A DNA stretch of 64,000 nucleotides from assembly GCF_003334765.1 (NCBI RefSeq), contig NZ_QOWT01000020.1. One strand, given 5' to 3'. This document shows, in pieces, positions 20,139 through 46,775 of this stretch. Under the pieces are notes generated by a model. The model was not told the origin of the DNA, did no database searches, and saw only the letters and a list, made by a program, of their open reading frames with translations. The translations under genes were made by a program, and so were the position numbers. The number at the start of each line of letters is the position of its first letter. Positions within the stretch are counted from its first letter, which is position 1. Source of the stretch: Escherichia coli. Its GTDB lineage: Bacteria; Pseudomonadota; Gammaproteobacteria; Enterobacterales; Enterobacteriaceae.

Positions 20139-21545
20139 TCAGAAGATGGTGAATGGTGCGATTACCATAAATTTCACGTCACGCTCATCCTGGAAGATGT
20201 TGCCGTAACCACCGCCCCAGCTTGGGATGTCGGAGTGGTTGTCGTATTCGGTGAAATGCAGTTTGAACATCGTGCCTTTGGCGCGACCGTCCTGAATGGT
20301 ATAGACCGCATCCAGGCTGTAGGCAGACTCTTCAATAGTCCGGTTTTTGTCGTAGTACGCATCCGGATTGCTCTGCCAGGTCGCAGGTTTAGCATCCCAT
20401 GCGTAAACGTAGGAAGCGCCGATGGCGAAGCCTGGAAGATTCCAGTTTTTCAGGTCATACATCGCACCGAAGAAGACCGCTTTTTCGCCGTTGGCGTTGA
20501 AGTCAGAACGGTTATCCCACCAGATATCCAGGCGACCGTTTGAGGAAGCGTAGGTTGGAGTCATACGTTGCAGGAAGTATCCCTGCTGACCGTCAGCCTT
20601 AACCCAGGTGCCTTCGAGGCGCAAATCCACTACGTCAGCCGCCCAGTAACCAAAGGTCAACGCTTGCAGCCAGGCGGTGCCGTCATAAAGGTCGTTGACG
20701 CTGCGATCGTCAACTTTATCTCGGGTACCGTAGAACTGGTAGCTGGTGGTTAACGGGCTACCGGCGATATCAAATTTGTAGCTGGCTTTGGCAAAATATT
20801 GATCGATATACCCTTCCGCCTGACCAAATGCCGCTTCCAGTACGAAGTTATTTTTGAAGTCGTATTTCGCCCCAAAGGAGTGCAGATAATCAACTTTGGT
20901 GGTTTTATCGTTCTGATAAAACTCATCCATTTCCAGATGCCACGGCGCTTTGTATTCGTTGGTCCACATGTAGGAGAAACTCAACGCACCAGCATCGCCG
21001 TAATCAAAATTCGCCCCGGCTTCCGCCCCCTGATAAGTACCTGGCATAAAGCTCCAGTGCGGCGCTAACAGCGTTTGACCAGTTGGCTGAATGTAACCTG
21101 CCCTCGCCCAAACCGGACCGTATTTAAATTTGGCCGCAGCTTTATACAGGCTTATACCGCTTTTGTCGCCGGACCAGTCTTCGTCATAGGCTTTATTACT
21201 TTTTGAAAACGCGATTTCGTTCGGGTGGGAGCTGTCGCCGTTTTCCGCCATTTCAATCGCCGTAAACGCAGCAATATCAAGGCCGAACATATCAGCAGCA
21301 TAACCGGACTGAAAATCGAGGTTGGCATTCCAGGTGGAGTGAGAAAGGTTGGTTTTGTATTTGTCGCCGTCGGTAACATCTTTACGGTCGCGTTCACGCT
21401 GCCAGTAATAGATACCGCCGGTTAAGGTTGAATCGTCGATGAATCCTTCGGCGCGAGCCTCCGGCATTGCCATAAAGCCCGACATTGCTGTAACACCGGC
21501 GATAGCCAGCGCCAGCGTACTACGTTTGCCACTAAACGTACGCAT
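20139..21545 (-). CDS. chiP: Chitoporin (outer-membrane porin, OprD family)
   Basis: 468-aa [35 protein letters not shown]... with signal peptide and C-terminal aromatic residue typical of a beta-barrel. Confidence 0.93.
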
Positions 21546-21700
21546 GGGTTAATCCTCTTTGACGTATAAATTGCTGCACCAAAGGTGAACAGCGAAAAAA
21601 TAAAAATTAAAAAAGTAGCGTTGAGAAAAGTCTCGCTGACTACAGGAACAGACTATTTTTCGCGACGCGAATTATCAATCTCTTTCTGTAACCAGAATGT
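21546..21700 (-). promoter_or_regulatory. chiP 5' leader (known target region of the sRNA ChiX)
   Basis: Non-coding region directly upstream of the chiP ATG; assignment rests on published chiP regulation, the exact pairing site was not mapped here. Confidence 0.35.
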
Positions 21701-21894
21701 AAGAACATGAGCAACCGCACATATTTTGATGATTTTTGTTACAAGGCTTAAGTTTGCGGTTGAAAGGCTTGCAGAAGAATAAAAGCGTGAAATTCCAGCA
21801 AGATGAAAGCGGTTACATTTTATTTAATTATGTTTTGTTATTTTAAATTTATTTTATGGATAAATTGCGAAGCGGAATTAATTCGCGAAGAAAA

Positions 21895-21925
21895 GCAGAA
21901 AAAACGCCGCTGAACGCGGCGTTTT
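21895..21925 (-). terminator. Intrinsic terminator downstream of glnS (distal to the BIME)
   Basis: Perfect 10-bp stem aaaacgccgc/gcggcgtttt with a 5-nt loop; on the minus strand it is followed by a T-run (plus-strand agaaaaa). Confidence 0.6.
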
Positions 21926-21944
21926 GGATTGTTTGCTGTTTCTT

Positions 21945-22106
21945 GCCGGATGCGGCGTGAACGCCTTATCCGGCCTACAAAAGCACGCAAACTCAATATA
22001 TTGCAGAGATCATGTAGGCCTGATAAGCGTAGCGCATCAGGCAATTTAGCGTTTGAAACTGTTTGTCTGTTCCTTGCCGGATGCGACGTAAACGCCCCAT
22101 CCGGCA
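21945..22106. repeat. BIME cluster of three REP palindromes
   Basis: REPs at 21945-21978, 22014-22043 and 22076-22106 in alternating orientation (gccggatgcggcgtgaacgccttatccggcctac type). Confidence 0.85.
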
Positions 22107-22121
22107 TAGCGAAACTTAAAA

Positions 22122-23786
22122 TTACTCGCCTACTTTCGCCCAGGTATCACGCAGCCCAACGGTGCGGTTAAATACCGGTTTTTCCGCCGTAGAATGGCGG
22201 CTATCGAGGCAGAAGTAACCTTCACGCTCAAACTGGAATGCTTTACCCGCAACCGCATCTTTCAGCGACGGTTCAGCAAAGCCCTGTTTGATCACCAGCG
22301 ATTCCGGGTTAATCACCGACAGGAAATCATCCGCAGCACCTGGGTTAGGCACGCTGAACAGACGGTCATACAAACGGATTTCAACCGGCAGCGCATGTGC
22401 CGCGCTCACCCAGTGAATAACACCTTTGACTTTACGACCATCTGCCGGATCTTTGCTTAAGGTATCGGCGTCATAAGTACAGAAGATGGTGGTGATATTA
22501 CCTTCGGCATCTTTCTCGACGCGTTCTGCCTTAATCACATAAGCATTACGCAGACGCACTTCTTTACCCAGCACCAGACGTTTGTACTGCTTGTTAGCTT
22601 CTTCGCGGAAATCGGCGCGATCAATCCAAATCTCACCGCTAAACGGCACCTGACGGCTGCCCATTTCCGGTTTGTTCGGATGGTTCGGCATGGTAACCAT
22701 TTCGCCTTCGCCCTGATAGTTTTCGATAACCAGTTTCACCGGATCGATAACCGCCATTGCGCGCGGCGCATTTTCGTTGAGATCTTCACGGATGCAGGAT
22801 TCCAGCGACGCCATCTCAATGGTGTTGTCCTGCTTGGTCACGCCGATGCGTTTGCAGAACTCACGAATAGAAGCCGCAGTGTAACCACGACGACGCAGAC
22901 CGGAAATGGTCGGCATACGCGGGTCATCCCAGCCTTCAACGTGCTTGTCGGTCACCAGCAGGTTCAACTTACGCTTGGACATCACGGTGTATTCCAGATT
23001 CAGGCGCGAGAACTCATACTGGCGCGGGTGAACAGGAATCGTGATGTTGTCCAGTACCCAGTCGTACAGACGACGGTTGTCCTGGAACTCAAGCGTACAC
23101 AGAGAGTGCGTAATACCTTCCAGGGCATCGCTGATGCAGTGGGTGAAGTCGTACATCGGGTAGATGCACCACTTGTTGCCAGTCTGGTGGTGTTCAGCAA
23201 ATTTAATACGGTACAGCACCGGATCGCGCATCACGATAAACGGTGAAGCCATGTCGATTTTCGCACGCAGGCAGGCTTTACCTTCTTCAAAACCACCGGC
23301 ACGCATTTTTTCGAACAGCGCCAGGTTCTCTTCAACGCTGCGGTCGCGGTACGGGCTGTTTTTACCCGGTTGCGTCAGGGTGCCGCGGTATTCGCGGATC
23401 TGTTCCGGCGTCAGTTCATCAACGTACGCCAGGCCTTTATTGATCAGTTCGATCGCATAGGCGTGGAGCTGATCAAAATAATCGGAGGAGTAACGGACGT
23501 TACCAGACCAGTGAAAACCTAACCACTCTACGTCGTTTTTGATCGACTCAACATACTCGATATCTTCTTTTACCGGGTTAGTGTCGTCGAAACGCAGGTT
23601 GCACTGGCCTTTATAGTCCTGGGCGATCCCGAAGTTCAGGCAGATAGATTTCGCATGGCCAATATGCAGATAGCCATTCGGCTCCGGCGGGAAACGGGTG
23701 TGTACTGTGGTGTGCTTACCACTGGCCAGATCTTCATCGATGATCTGACGGATAAAGTTAGTCGGGCGGGCTTCTGCCTCACTCAT
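22122..23786 (-). CDS. glnS: Glutaminyl-tRNA synthetase
   Basis: 554-aa [27 protein letters not shown]... with class-I HIGH motif ([11 protein letters not shown]) and VMSKR. Confidence 0.97.
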
Positions 23787-23988
23787 CGTGGATTCCTCAA
23801 AGCGTAAACAACGTATAACGGCGTATGATCTTATAAGCGGGACAGGCTGACAACTGTTAGTTTTTTAAAATTGATAATCTAACAAGGATTATGGGGATGA
23901 TTGATGAAAAAAAAAGCGGCAGAGAAGATCTCCACCGCTTGTCATTGTTGGATGCGACGCTCAAGCGTCGCATCAGGCATAAAGCAGA

Positions 23989-30310: not shown

Positions 30311-30332
30311 AACCACGTCTGCGGACGTGGTT
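30311..30332 (+). terminator. Hairpin after nagD (weak terminator candidate)
   Basis: aaccacgtc-tgcg-gacgtggtt, a 9-bp stem with a poor T-tract. Confidence 0.35.
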
Positions 30333-30356
30333 GGCTCTGATGACAAACGCCAAACT

Positions 30357-30455
30357 GCCTGATGCGCTACGCTTATCAGGCCTACGCAGCTCCTGCAATA
30401 TATTGAATTTTCATGCTTTTGTAGGCCGGATAAGGCGTTCACGCCGCATCCGGCA
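30357..30455. repeat. BIME: two REP palindromes
   Basis: gcctgatgcgctacgcttatcaggcctac (30357-30385) and gtaggccggataaggcgttcacgccgcatccggca (30421-30455). Confidence 0.85.
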
Positions 30456-30701: not shown

Positions 30702-32366
30702 ATGTGTTCAATTTTTGGCGTATTCGATATCAAAACAGACGCAGTTGAGCTGCGTAAGAAAGCCCTCGAGCTGTCACGCCTGATGCGTCATCGTGGCCCG
30801 GACTGGTCCGGTATTTATGCCAGCGATAACGCCATTCTCGCCCACGAACGTCTGTCAATTGTTGACGTTAACGCGGGGGCGCAACCTCTCTACAACCAAC
30901 AAAAAACCCACGTACTGGCGGTAAACGGTGAAATCTACAACCACCAGGCATTGCGCGCCGAATATGGCGATCGTTACCAGTTCCAGACCGGGTCTGACTG
31001 TGAAGTGATCCTCGCGCTGTATCAGGAAAAAGGGCCGGAATTTCTCGACGACTTGCAGGGCATGTTTGCCTTTGCACTGTACGACAGCGAAAAAGATGCC
31101 TACCTGATTGGTCGCGACCATCTGGGGATCATCCCACTGTATATGGGGTATGACGAACACGGTCAGCTGTATGTGGCCTCAGAAATGAAAGCGCTGGTGC
31201 CAGTTTGCCGCACGATTAAAGAGTTCCCGGCGGGGAGCTATTTGTGGAGCCAGGACGGCGAAATCCGTTCTTACTATCATCGCGACTGGTTCGACTACGA
31301 TGCGGTGAAAGATAACGTGACCGACAAAAACGAGCTGCGTCAGGCACTGGAAGATTCAGTTAAAAGCCATCTGATGTCTGATGTGCCTTACGGTGTGCTG
31401 CTTTCTGGTGGTCTGGATTCCTCAATTATTTCCGCTATCACCAAGAAATACGCAGCCCGTCGCGTGGAAGATCAGGAACGCTCTGAAGCCTGGTGGCCGC
31501 AGTTACACTCCTTTGCTGTAGGTCTGCCGGGTTCACCGGATCTGAAAGCAGCCCAGGAAGTGGCAAACCATCTGGGCACGGTGCATCACGAAATTCACTT
31601 CACTGTACAGGAAGGTCTGGATGCCATCCGCGACGTGATTTACCACATCGAAACTTATGATGTGACCACTATTCGCGCTTCAACACCGATGTATTTAATG
31701 TCGCGTAAGATCAAGGCGATGGGCATTAAAATGGTGCTGTCCGGTGAAGGTTCTGATGAAGTGTTCGGCGGTTATCTTTACTTCCACAAAGCACCGAATG
31801 CCAAAGAACTGCATGAAGAGACGGTGCGTAAACTGCTGGCCCTGCATATGTATGACTGCGCGCGTGCCAACAAAGCGATGTCAGCCTGGGGCGTGGAAGC
31901 ACGCGTTCCGTTCCTCGACAAAAAATTCCTTGATGTGGCGATGCGTATTAACCCACAGGATAAAATGTGCGGTAACGGCAAAATGGAAAAACACATCCTG
32001 CGTGAATGTTTTGAAGCGTATCTGCCTGCAAGCGTGGCCTGGCGGCAGAAAGAGCAGTTCTCCGATGGCGTCGGTTACAGTTGGATCGACACCCTGAAAG
32101 AAGTGGCTGCGCAGCAGGTTTCTGATCAGCAACTGGAAACTGCCCGCTTCCGCTTCCCGTACAACACGCCAACCTCTAAAGAAGCGTACTTGTATCGGGA
32201 GATCTTTGAAGAACTATTCCCGCTTCCGAGCGCCGCTGAGTGCGTGCCGGGCGGTCCTTCCGTCGCTTGTTCTTCCGCTAAAGCGATCGAATGGGATGAA
32301 GCGTTCAAGAAAATGGACGATCCGTCTGGTCGCGCGGTTGGTGTTCACCAGTCGGCGTATAAGTAA
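30702..32366 (+). CDS. asnB: Asparagine synthetase B (glutamine-hydrolysing)
   Basis: 554-aa protein MCSIFGVFDIKTDAVELRKKALELSRLMRHRGPDWSG... (N-terminal Cys nucleophile, SGGLDSS PP-loop); start trimmed from track ORF 30621. Confidence 0.96.
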   Translation: MCSIFGVFDIKTDAVELRKKALELSRLMRHRGPDWSGIYASDNAILAHERLSIVDVNAGAQPLYNQQKTHVLAVNGEIYNHQALRAEYGDRYQFQTGSDCEVILALYQEKGPEFLDDLQGMFAFALYDSEKDAYLIGRDHLGIIPLYMGYDEHGQLYVASEMKALVPVCRTIKEFPAGSYLWSQDGEIRSYYHRDWFDYDAVKDNVTDKNELRQALEDSVKSHLMSDVPYGVLLSGGLDSSIISAITKKYAARRVEDQERSEAWWPQLHSFAVGLPGSPDLKAAQEVANHLGTVHHEIHFTVQEGLDAIRDVIYHIETYDVTTIRASTPMYLMSRKIKAMGIKMVLSGEGSDEVFGGYLYFHKAPNAKELHEETVRKLLALHMYDCARANKAMSAWGVEARVPFLDKKFLDVAMRINPQDKMCGNGKMEKHILRECFEAYLPASVAWRQKEQFSDGVGYSWIDTLKEVAAQQVSDQQLETARFRFPYNTPTSKEAYLYREIFEELFPLPSAAECVPGGPSVACSSAKAIEWDEAFKKMDDPSGRAVGVHQSAYK

Positions 32367-32745: not shown

Positions 32746-32822
32746 GGCTACGTAGCTCAGTTGGTTAGAGCACATCACTCATAATGATGGGGTCACAGGT
32801 TCGAATCCCGTCGTAGCCACCA
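32746..32822 (+). tRNA. metT: tRNA-Met (elongator, anticodon CAU)
   Basis: 77-nt ggctacgtagctcagttggttagagcac...ctcataat...gtcgtagccacca with encoded CCA. Confidence 0.93.
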
Positions 32823-32831
32823 TCTTTTTTT

Positions 32832-32916
32832 GCGGGAGTGGCGAAATTGGTAGACGCACCAGATTTAGGTTCTGGCGCCGCAAGGTGTGCGAGTTCAAGT
32901 CTCGCCTCCCGCACCA
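32832..32916 (+). tRNA. leuW: tRNA-Leu (anticodon UAG)
   Basis: 85-nt gcgggagtggcgaaattggtagacgcaccagatttaggttctgg...cgcctcccgcacca; long variable arm. Confidence 0.93.
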
Positions 32917-32939
32917 TTCACCAGAAAGCGTTGTACGGA

Positions 32940-33014
32940 TGGGGTATCGCCAAGCGGTAAGGCACCGGTTTTTGATACCGGCATTCCCTGGTTCGAATCC
33001 AGGTACCCCAGCCA
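32940..33014 (+). tRNA. glnU: tRNA-Gln (anticodon UUG)
   Basis: 75-nt tggggtatcgccaagcggtaaggcaccggtttttgataccgg...ccccagcca; could equally be named glnW. Confidence 0.9.
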
Positions 33015-46736: not shown

Positions 46737-46744
46737 ACACGGCT

Positions 46745-46775
46745 GCCGGATGCGGCGTAAACGCTGCATCCGGCA
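46745..46775. repeat. REP palindrome between hscC and djlC
   Basis: gccggatgcggcgtaaacgctgcatccggca. Confidence 0.8.

Follow-up and report, generated by a model that had tools for sequence, protein, structure and literature searches.

REP sequences were reportedly described as stabilisers of mRNA by Newbury in 1987 and as dampers of translation by Liang, Rudd and Deutscher in 2015, and the definition of the BIME-1 (or RIP) type of composite element is said to be due to Gilson, Bachellier and co-workers. A BIME-1 is composed of a z1 and a y REP, present as a single copy, with a long L linker that often contains an IHF site (Ton-Hoang et al. 2012, PMC3333891); a BIME-2 has short linkers and a tandem arrangement of y and z2 REPs (PMC3333891). 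Gyrase cleavage has been documented for BIME-2, chiefly at the y REPs within it (PMC6379681). REPs are substrates of the TnpA_REP transposase, and both the GTAG/CTAC foot and a stem mismatch are needed for TnpA_REP binding (PMC3333891). Intergenic variation between strains that is borne by BIMEs is described as an established phenomenon (Bachellier 1997, as cited in PMC3333891).

Here, a REP cluster at the 3' end of glnS was examined within a 64,000-nt stretch of the E. coli chromosome, referred to as the window, which is inverted relative to the K-12 orientation and carries, in order, kdp, pgm, fur, chiP, glnS, nagE, nagBACD, asnB, a tRNA operon, ubiF, lnt, gltI, hscC and leuS. Gene names follow the BL21 and MG1655 annotation in RefSeq. 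The 1 kb over the glnS 3' end (21500-22500) was 100% identical to BL21(DE3) and to other strains, and the open reading frame is annotated as glnS in BL21(DE3). The repeats are REP/BIME sequences, an element type already described, and we consider it highly probable that the interval 21895-22106 is the glnS 3' UTR, made up of a REP cluster followed by the ancestral Rho-independent terminator.

The REP cluster downstream of glnS

On the minus strand, the glnS stop codon was followed by a spacer, a degenerate Y-type REP (Y'), a short Z-type REP, a linker, a canonical Y-type REP and the terminator.

22122-23786, minus strand: glnS coding sequence from the ORF list, glutamine--tRNA ligase of 554 aa, C-terminus ...RDTWAKVGE*, stop TAA at 22124-22122
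22107-22121, minus strand: spacer TTTTAAGTTTCGCTA from the stop to the first REP stem, 15 nt, read from the sequence
22075-22106, minus strand: Y', the proximal degenerate Y-type REP TGCCGGATGGGGCGTTTACGTCGCATCCGGCA, 29/35 to the Y consensus, RNA hairpin of -25.7 kcal/mol (z -5.45)
22014-22043, minus strand: short Z-type REP TGCCTGATGCGCTACGCTTATCAGGCCTAC, 30/30 to the short Z consensus, hairpin of -13.2 kcal/mol
21979-22013, unstranded: L-type linker of 35 nt with its core ACTCAATATATTG at 21991-22003, one mismatch against the IHF consensus WATCAANNNNTTR
21944-21978, plus strand: canonical Y-type REP, in consensus orientation on the plus strand, 35/35 to Y, hairpin of -20.9 kcal/mol
21901-21925 (stem), reaching about 21892-21894 with the T-run, minus strand: glnS intrinsic terminator, a AAAACGCCGC-GTTCA-GCGGCGTTTT stem-loop and the T-run TTCTGCTTTT, from the two-strand terminator scan, fold of -16.5 kcal/mol

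Y' and the short Z were separated by 31 nt, and the Y REP and the terminator by 18 nt. As read on the glnS transcript, the Y REP is GTAGGCCGGATAAGGCGTTCACGCCGCATCCGGCA, in the inverse orientation. Fold z-scores of the glnS REP hairpins ranged from -3.5 to -5.5. Together with their flanks, Y' and Y formed a 42-nt direct repeat whose copies were spaced 131 nt apart. The minimum-free-energy fold of the full length linked the first REP to the third by long-range pairing and was set aside, because local hairpins should form earlier, in the course of transcription. The first-pass annotation, which had placed three REPs between the glnS stop and the real terminator, was right in both coordinates and count.

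Membership of the REP family was assessed by an ungapped scan with three consensus strings (Y, long Z and short Z) at an identity of at least 68%, and by blastn-short; the strings were working forms of the consensus, backed by identical copies elsewhere. This consensus scan, which the first-pass annotation had proposed as its check, returned 17 matches in the window, corresponding to 11 distinct elements, whereas 100 shuffles gave 0.03 on average. The REP head GCCKGATGCG was observed 12 times against 0.48 expected, with 11 of the 12 occurrences intergenic. The remaining head decamer, GCCTGATGCG, was located at 30778-30787 within the asnB coding sequence and fits the approximately 0.5 matches expected by chance. 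A 246-nt query running from the glnS stop to the terminator matched a median of at least 39-40 places per genome across 5426 complete E. coli genomes. When three mismatches were allowed, the classic Stern-type consensus of 37 nt gave no match because the loop length of that pattern is fixed. The glnS cluster consists of consensus palindromes of 30-40 nt, is present in high copy number and is extragenic, as is expected of REPs. The consensus matches of 35/35, 30/30 and 29/35 and the copy number bear out the view that these are ordinary E. coli REP/BIME features.

That the glnS repeats could be a CRISPR-like array, the ends of an insertion sequence or chance palindromes, with no REPs among them, is almost inconceivable. 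Spaced palindromes of approximately 30-35 nt superficially resemble a short repeat array, but the orientation of the glnS repeats alternates and their match to the REP types is exact; they are present at 40 or so places per genome at least, whereas chance would give approximately 0.03 matches. No cas or transposase gene was found beside them. All three readings were rejected on the basis of the consensus matches, the excess of head motifs, the BIME copies at pgm and nagD, and the shuffle scan. The earlier caution that the repeats should not be mistaken for CRISPR or mobile-element ends held as far as CRISPR and IS ends are concerned; it needs a nuance, as REPs are themselves substrates of TnpA_REP (PMC3333891) and REP number differs among strains.

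REP sites elsewhere in the window

The scans of the window also located the following elements.

14517-14616, unstranded: pgm BIME-1-type unit, with Y at 14517-14551, a linker and short Z at 14587-14616, from the consensus scan, REP arms identical to those of glnS
30356-30455, unstranded: nagD BIME-1-type unit, with short Z at 30356-30385, a linker and Y at 30421-30455, from the consensus scan
33281-33370, unstranded: degenerate long-Z-type REPs at the tRNA operon and ubiF, 32/37 to long Z at 33315-33351 with weaker degenerate copies
40360-40394, plus strand: weak lnt REP remnant, 45 nt past the lnt stop, 25/35 to Y, fold z-score -1.9
46744-46775, unstranded: single Y-like REP at hscC without a GTAG/CTAC foot, 28/35 to Y, hairpin of -31.1 kcal/mol
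23946-23982, minus strand: REP-like palindrome at nagE with the Z-type head TGCCTGATGCGACGC, 27/37 to long Z, hairpin of -18 kcal/mol
23906-23940, minus strand: nagE intrinsic terminator, hairpin 23940-23914 and T-run, from the terminator scan
13004-13016, minus strand: half-REP, head only, past the potE terminator, from the head scan

REPs had initially been listed at six loci (pgm, glnS, nagD, the tRNA operon, lnt and hscC), and REP-derived sequence was indeed present at all six, although at lnt it was a weak remnant (25/35). The nagE palindrome and the half-REP past potE were absent from that list. The further proposal that REPs lie between stop codon and terminator was accurate for glnS, nagE and ubiF; it did not extend to pgm or the tRNA operon, where the terminator comes first, or to nagD, lnt and hscC, where no canonical terminator was found past the REPs. 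At pgm, a hairpin with a U-tract at approximately 14640-14670 (-21.5 kcal/mol) was located between the stop and the REPs, so that the BIME comes after the terminator. At nagD, a U-less hairpin (30311-30335) preceded the BIME, and the terminator scan found no canonical terminator between the BIME and the asnB leader. The same scan found no canonical terminator past the REPs of lnt and hscC. The hscC REP lay 7 nt from the hscC stop, between the convergent genes hscC and djlC, and formed a nearly perfect palindrome, the customary mismatch of the stem being paired here. At nagE, the palindrome lay 14 nt past the stop (23989), ahead of the nagE terminator. A Term-seq 3' end reported 124 nt upstream of the glnS start corresponds to approximately position 23910, in the T-run of the nagE terminator and past the REP-like hairpin (PMC7815308 supplement).

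The tRNA genes finish at 33228 and are followed by a two-way terminator at 33234-33259, ahead of the REPs at 33281-33370, which sit between that terminator and the ubiF stop (33382, minus strand). Because the terminator precedes the REPs on the tRNA side, the order of stop, REP and terminator belongs to ubiF and not to the tRNA operon. The metT-type operon itself (32746-33228) was found to hold five genes (Met, Leu, Gln, Met, Gln) compared with seven in BL21(DE3), each tandem tRNA-Gln pair of BL21(DE3) being a single copy in the window. The window also lacked the rhomboid protease gene found after lnt in BL21, and on both counts it differs from BL21 itself.

The Z-linker-Y unit was nearly unchanged at glnS, pgm and nagD, with 89% identity overall; the 35-nt Y REP and the 30-nt short Z REP were identical at the three loci. 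The linker core TCAATATATTGCA was invariant in all three copies, and an IHF-like match, with one mismatch to WATCAANNNNTTR, occupied the same position in each linker. Over the whole window, the one-mismatch IHF motif was not enriched (58 observed vs 54 expected). Judged by its sequence, the glnS Z-linker-Y unit has the BIME-1 layout. The short Z would be z1, a name given because of this layout and without reference to a printed consensus.

The CTAC foot was kept in both the Y REP (…GGCCTAC) and the short Z (…GGCCTAC), each of which has an internal stem mismatch. With its foot, its stem mismatch and the TGCC/TGAT and GGCC/TACA cleavage motifs (slash at the cleavage point), the glnS Z-linker-Y unit retains what TnpA_REP requires in vitro (requirements from PMC3333891). 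The GTAG/CTAC foot was not found in Y' (22075-22106), where the foot reads …GGCATAG and the stem retains two mismatches. Two Y-like REPs in the window lack the foot, the one at hscC (46744-46775) and Y' (22075-22106), and since TnpA_REP requires it, both are probably immobile relics.

The ancestral terminator and the history of the cluster

The hairpin at 21901-21925 had the features expected of an intrinsic terminator: a 10-bp stem containing six G-C pairs, a loop of 5 nt and a tail reading TTTTTTCTGCTTTT. An A-tract lends it a two-way look. Its conservation was surveyed in one genome per species, in which the locus was found by a 13-residue peptide from the GlnRS C-terminus and the DNA past each stop was read. 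A hairpin of A-tract, CGCCGC-loop-GCGGCG and T-run occurred after the glnS stop in 20 sampled species, most of them Enterobacteriaceae. In 16 of the 20, among them Citrobacter, Leclercia, Pseudocitrobacter, Enterobacter, Siccibacter, Phytobacter and Shimwellia, the hairpin started 11-26 nt past the stop, with no REP in the spacer. All four cases of a longer spacer carried REP insertions: the distance from stop to hairpin was 75 nt in E. albertii, which has a single REP, 128 nt with two REPs in a divergent GTDB representative labelled 'E. coli', 158 nt in Superficieibacter electus, where a REP pair of another family (GCCCGGTGGCGCTGCGCTTACCGGGCCTAC type) lies between stop and terminator, and 196 nt with three REPs in the window. 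In Escherichia sp. ESNIH1, that other family (GCCCGGTGGCGCTGCGCTTACCGGGCCTAC type) was located past the glnS terminator.

On this comparison, the hairpin at 21901-21925 is the ancestral, or real, glnS terminator. As the short spacer is REP-free in 16 of 20 species and the exceptions carry REPs, the glnS REPs are therefore lineage-specific insertions ahead of that terminator, and the survey indicates that REPs have entered the spacer more than once. REPs are non-autonomous repeats whose spread and rearrangement are due to the TnpA_REP (RAYT) transposase and to recombination. At glnS, they would have landed in an original spacer of approximately 11-26 nt, leaving a cluster that may be read as an old degenerate Y-type REP plus a full BIME-1-type unit. 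The locus would then offer a clean textbook case of REPs colonising a short spacer before an ancestral terminator.

The glnS locus also exemplifies polymorphism of BIME copy number within a species. The locus was found in 5422 of 5426 complete E. coli genomes, and the three-REP allele, defined as at least 80% cover of the stop-to-terminator query, in 2456 of the 5426; many loci were shorter by approximately 130 nt. In the three shorter strains that were aligned, a single REP stood immediately ahead of the conserved terminator, and the one-REP state of the shorter alleles refers to these three sampled strains. The alleles differ in length by 131 nt, the same as the spacing between the copies of the 42-nt direct repeat of Y' and Y. 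The two-REP allele of the GTDB 'E. coli' representative was seen in none of the 5426 complete genomes, and this representative is a divergent lineage. The sequence GGGCGTTTAC was common to Y' and to the single REP of E. albertii, and Y' is probably the ancestral single REP of the locus. Because of this shared sequence, the likeliest history appears to be an ancestral single REP to which the Z-linker-Y unit was added later. Loss of the unit through recombination between Y' and Y could also have given rise to the one-REP allele.

Several features were noted in the DNA past the glnS terminator. A motif, TTCGCGAATTAAT..., follows it immediately (21865-21889), and a longer form, TTCGCGATGCGAATTAAT, is kept at the same place in many Enterobacteriaceae; the motif is probably a chiP regulatory site. 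The sRNA ChiZ (b4808), annotated in the chiP 5' UTR of MG1655, corresponds to 21546-21643 on the minus strand, approximately 250 nt downstream of the glnS terminator, and this stretch was almost unchanged across six aligned E. coli strains. In E. coli STEC276, an IS1A insertion was found between the glnS terminator and the chiP promoter, at approximately 21850-21870, and did not hit the REPs. In some RefSeq genomes, a 52-aa 'hypothetical protein' (WP_000649026.1, WP_152914850.1) is annotated over the glnS terminator and the chiP upstream region, at approximately 21800-21960 on the plus strand (505-663 and 506-664 in two extracted loci); this annotation beside the glnS REPs is likely spurious.

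Possible effects and comparison with described REP systems

RNA polymerase moving past glnS would transcribe the three hairpins and release the transcript at approximately 21894-21900. Transcription of the REPs as glnS 3' UTR is predicted from the layout: all three should be transcribed, because the REP hairpins lack a U-tract and no promoter lies between. Since attenuation of transcription by BIMEs has been described (Espeli 2001, as cited in PMC6061677), some glnS transcripts may stop before the terminator. The Term-seq tables of Adams et al. (PMC7815308), searched by gene name and by coordinate prefix, listed no glnS 3' end, either at the terminator or at the foot of any REP, and the SMRT-Cappable-seq supplement contained no glnS entry. 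The NaF/REP paper lists glnS and gives it no REP label. The interval should be annotated as a REP/BIME cluster with the glnS terminator; the labels CRISPR array, sRNA gene and protein do not apply.

Three modest effects of the cluster can be envisaged: the mRNA 3' end may be shielded from exonucleases, translation termination may be damped by a hairpin 15 nt past the stop, and IHF may act on the linker DNA. The cluster is probably dispensable repeat DNA, close to neutral and of modest effect at most, a rating given because approximately half of the strains have fewer REPs (the unit is missing) and other genera have none.

A stronger role has nevertheless to be weighed, namely that the cluster is a selected post-transcriptional control of glnS in which the 3' end is stabilised and the proximal hairpin stalls terminating ribosomes, lowering GlnRS output. 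According to Liang et al. (2015, as cited in PMC12306157), REPs affect translation up to a limit of 15 nt past the stop, and the glnS spacer, at exactly 15 nt, equals that limit. This agreement, the rule of 15 nt or less itself (Liang et al. 2015, as cited in PMC12306157), the stability of the hairpins (-13 to -26 kcal/mol) and the like spacing at nagE (14 nt) and hscC (7 nt) favor the idea, but 15 nt is borderline for the reported effect, the element is missing from other genera, REP number and spacer vary among E. coli strains, and the hairpin of the intrinsic terminator already guards the 3' end, all of which leave such control unlikely. A second possibility is that the REPs, and not the downstream hairpin, set the steady-state 3' ends of glnS, by Rho-dependent attenuation in the BIME or by exonuclease trimming to a REP foot, with the terminator mainly insulating the chiP promoter. 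The lack of a listed Term-seq peak at the glnS terminator would agree with this, but no peak is listed at the REP feet either, the strong stem and U-tract are conserved across genera as the sole structure after glnS, and the mapped 3' end of nagE is at the terminator and not at the REP-like hairpin. We find such 3' ends distinctly improbable.

The element could also work as DNA: bound by IHF (as RIP/BIME-1) or by gyrase, it would buffer supercoiling between constitutive glnS and the normally silent chiP promoter. The first-pass annotation had spoken of gyrase and IHF sites; the IHF part fits the BIME-1 layout, which is linked to IHF (PMC3333891), whereas gyrase cleavage is documented for BIME-2 (PMC6379681), for which reason IHF is the better-founded DNA partner at glnS. 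The equal placement of the IHF-like core in all three BIME linkers, the frequency of IHF sites in BIME-1 linkers (PMC3333891) and the cleavage of y-type REPs by gyrase (PMC6379681) speak for a role at the DNA level. We regard this role as distinctly improbable, as gyrase enrichment is known for BIME-2 and not for BIME-1 (PMC6379681), the IHF motif has one mismatch and the site is predicted, and the unit is missing from approximately half of the strains and from all other genera sampled. Less probable still is that the presence or absence of the 131-nt Z-linker-Y unit (approximately 45:55 in complete E. coli genomes) constitutes a natural cis-acting expression variant, a source of a stable 3'-UTR fragment that derives from the REPs and is akin to naRNA4 or ES036, or both. 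If true, the cis variant might alter glnS mRNA stability, GlnRS output or read-through into the chiP/ChiZ region. The preferred reading is still a REP cluster of modest consequence in the glnS 3' UTR, ahead of an ancestral terminator.

At Rfam gathering thresholds, only tRNAs, sroC and ES036 (in the nagD BIME linker) were found in the window. The sroC sRNA was full length at 41616-41778 on the plus strand, at the gltI 3' end (174.8 bits), with a strong terminator after it. The ES036 (CssrF) match above the gathering score, 30378-30420 on the minus strand, lay wholly in the nagD L linker; the glnS linker matched ES036 on the plus strand with 28.9 bits vs a gathering score of 37.6, and the family may simply describe the BIME linker. 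The naRNA4 model (RF02564) scored 42.5 bits at glnS, below its gathering score of 59.5. naRNA4 is a nucleoid-associated RNA derived from REP325; the first hairpin of its model is matched by the glnS Y REP, but the second aligned hairpin is the glnS terminator and not a Z REP. The resemblance is due to shared REP sequence only.

The REPs described as stabilisers or as dampers of translation resemble those of glnS in forming stable 3' UTR hairpins, the first of which stands 15 nt past the stop. They differ in that the glnS transcript is already capped by a strong terminator hairpin, the spacing is at the limit of the effect, and a function at glnS is putative. With BIME-2, the glnS cluster shares a y-type REP and a REP number that varies among strains. 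At glnS, however, the linker is long (35 nt) and IHF-like and the Z REP belongs to the short type, and tandem y/z2 REPs with short S linkers were not found. The gyrase association of BIME-2 cannot simply be transferred to this locus. The likeness is to BIME-1/RIP, with which glnS shares two REP types in inverted orientation, a conserved linker of approximately 35 nt with an IHF-like core, one unit per locus and an extragenic 3' position. It departs from BIME-1 in its additional upstream degenerate Y without a GTAG foot, which makes the locus a three-REP composite, and in an IHF site that is putative. The glnS element is of a known kind and opens no new question.
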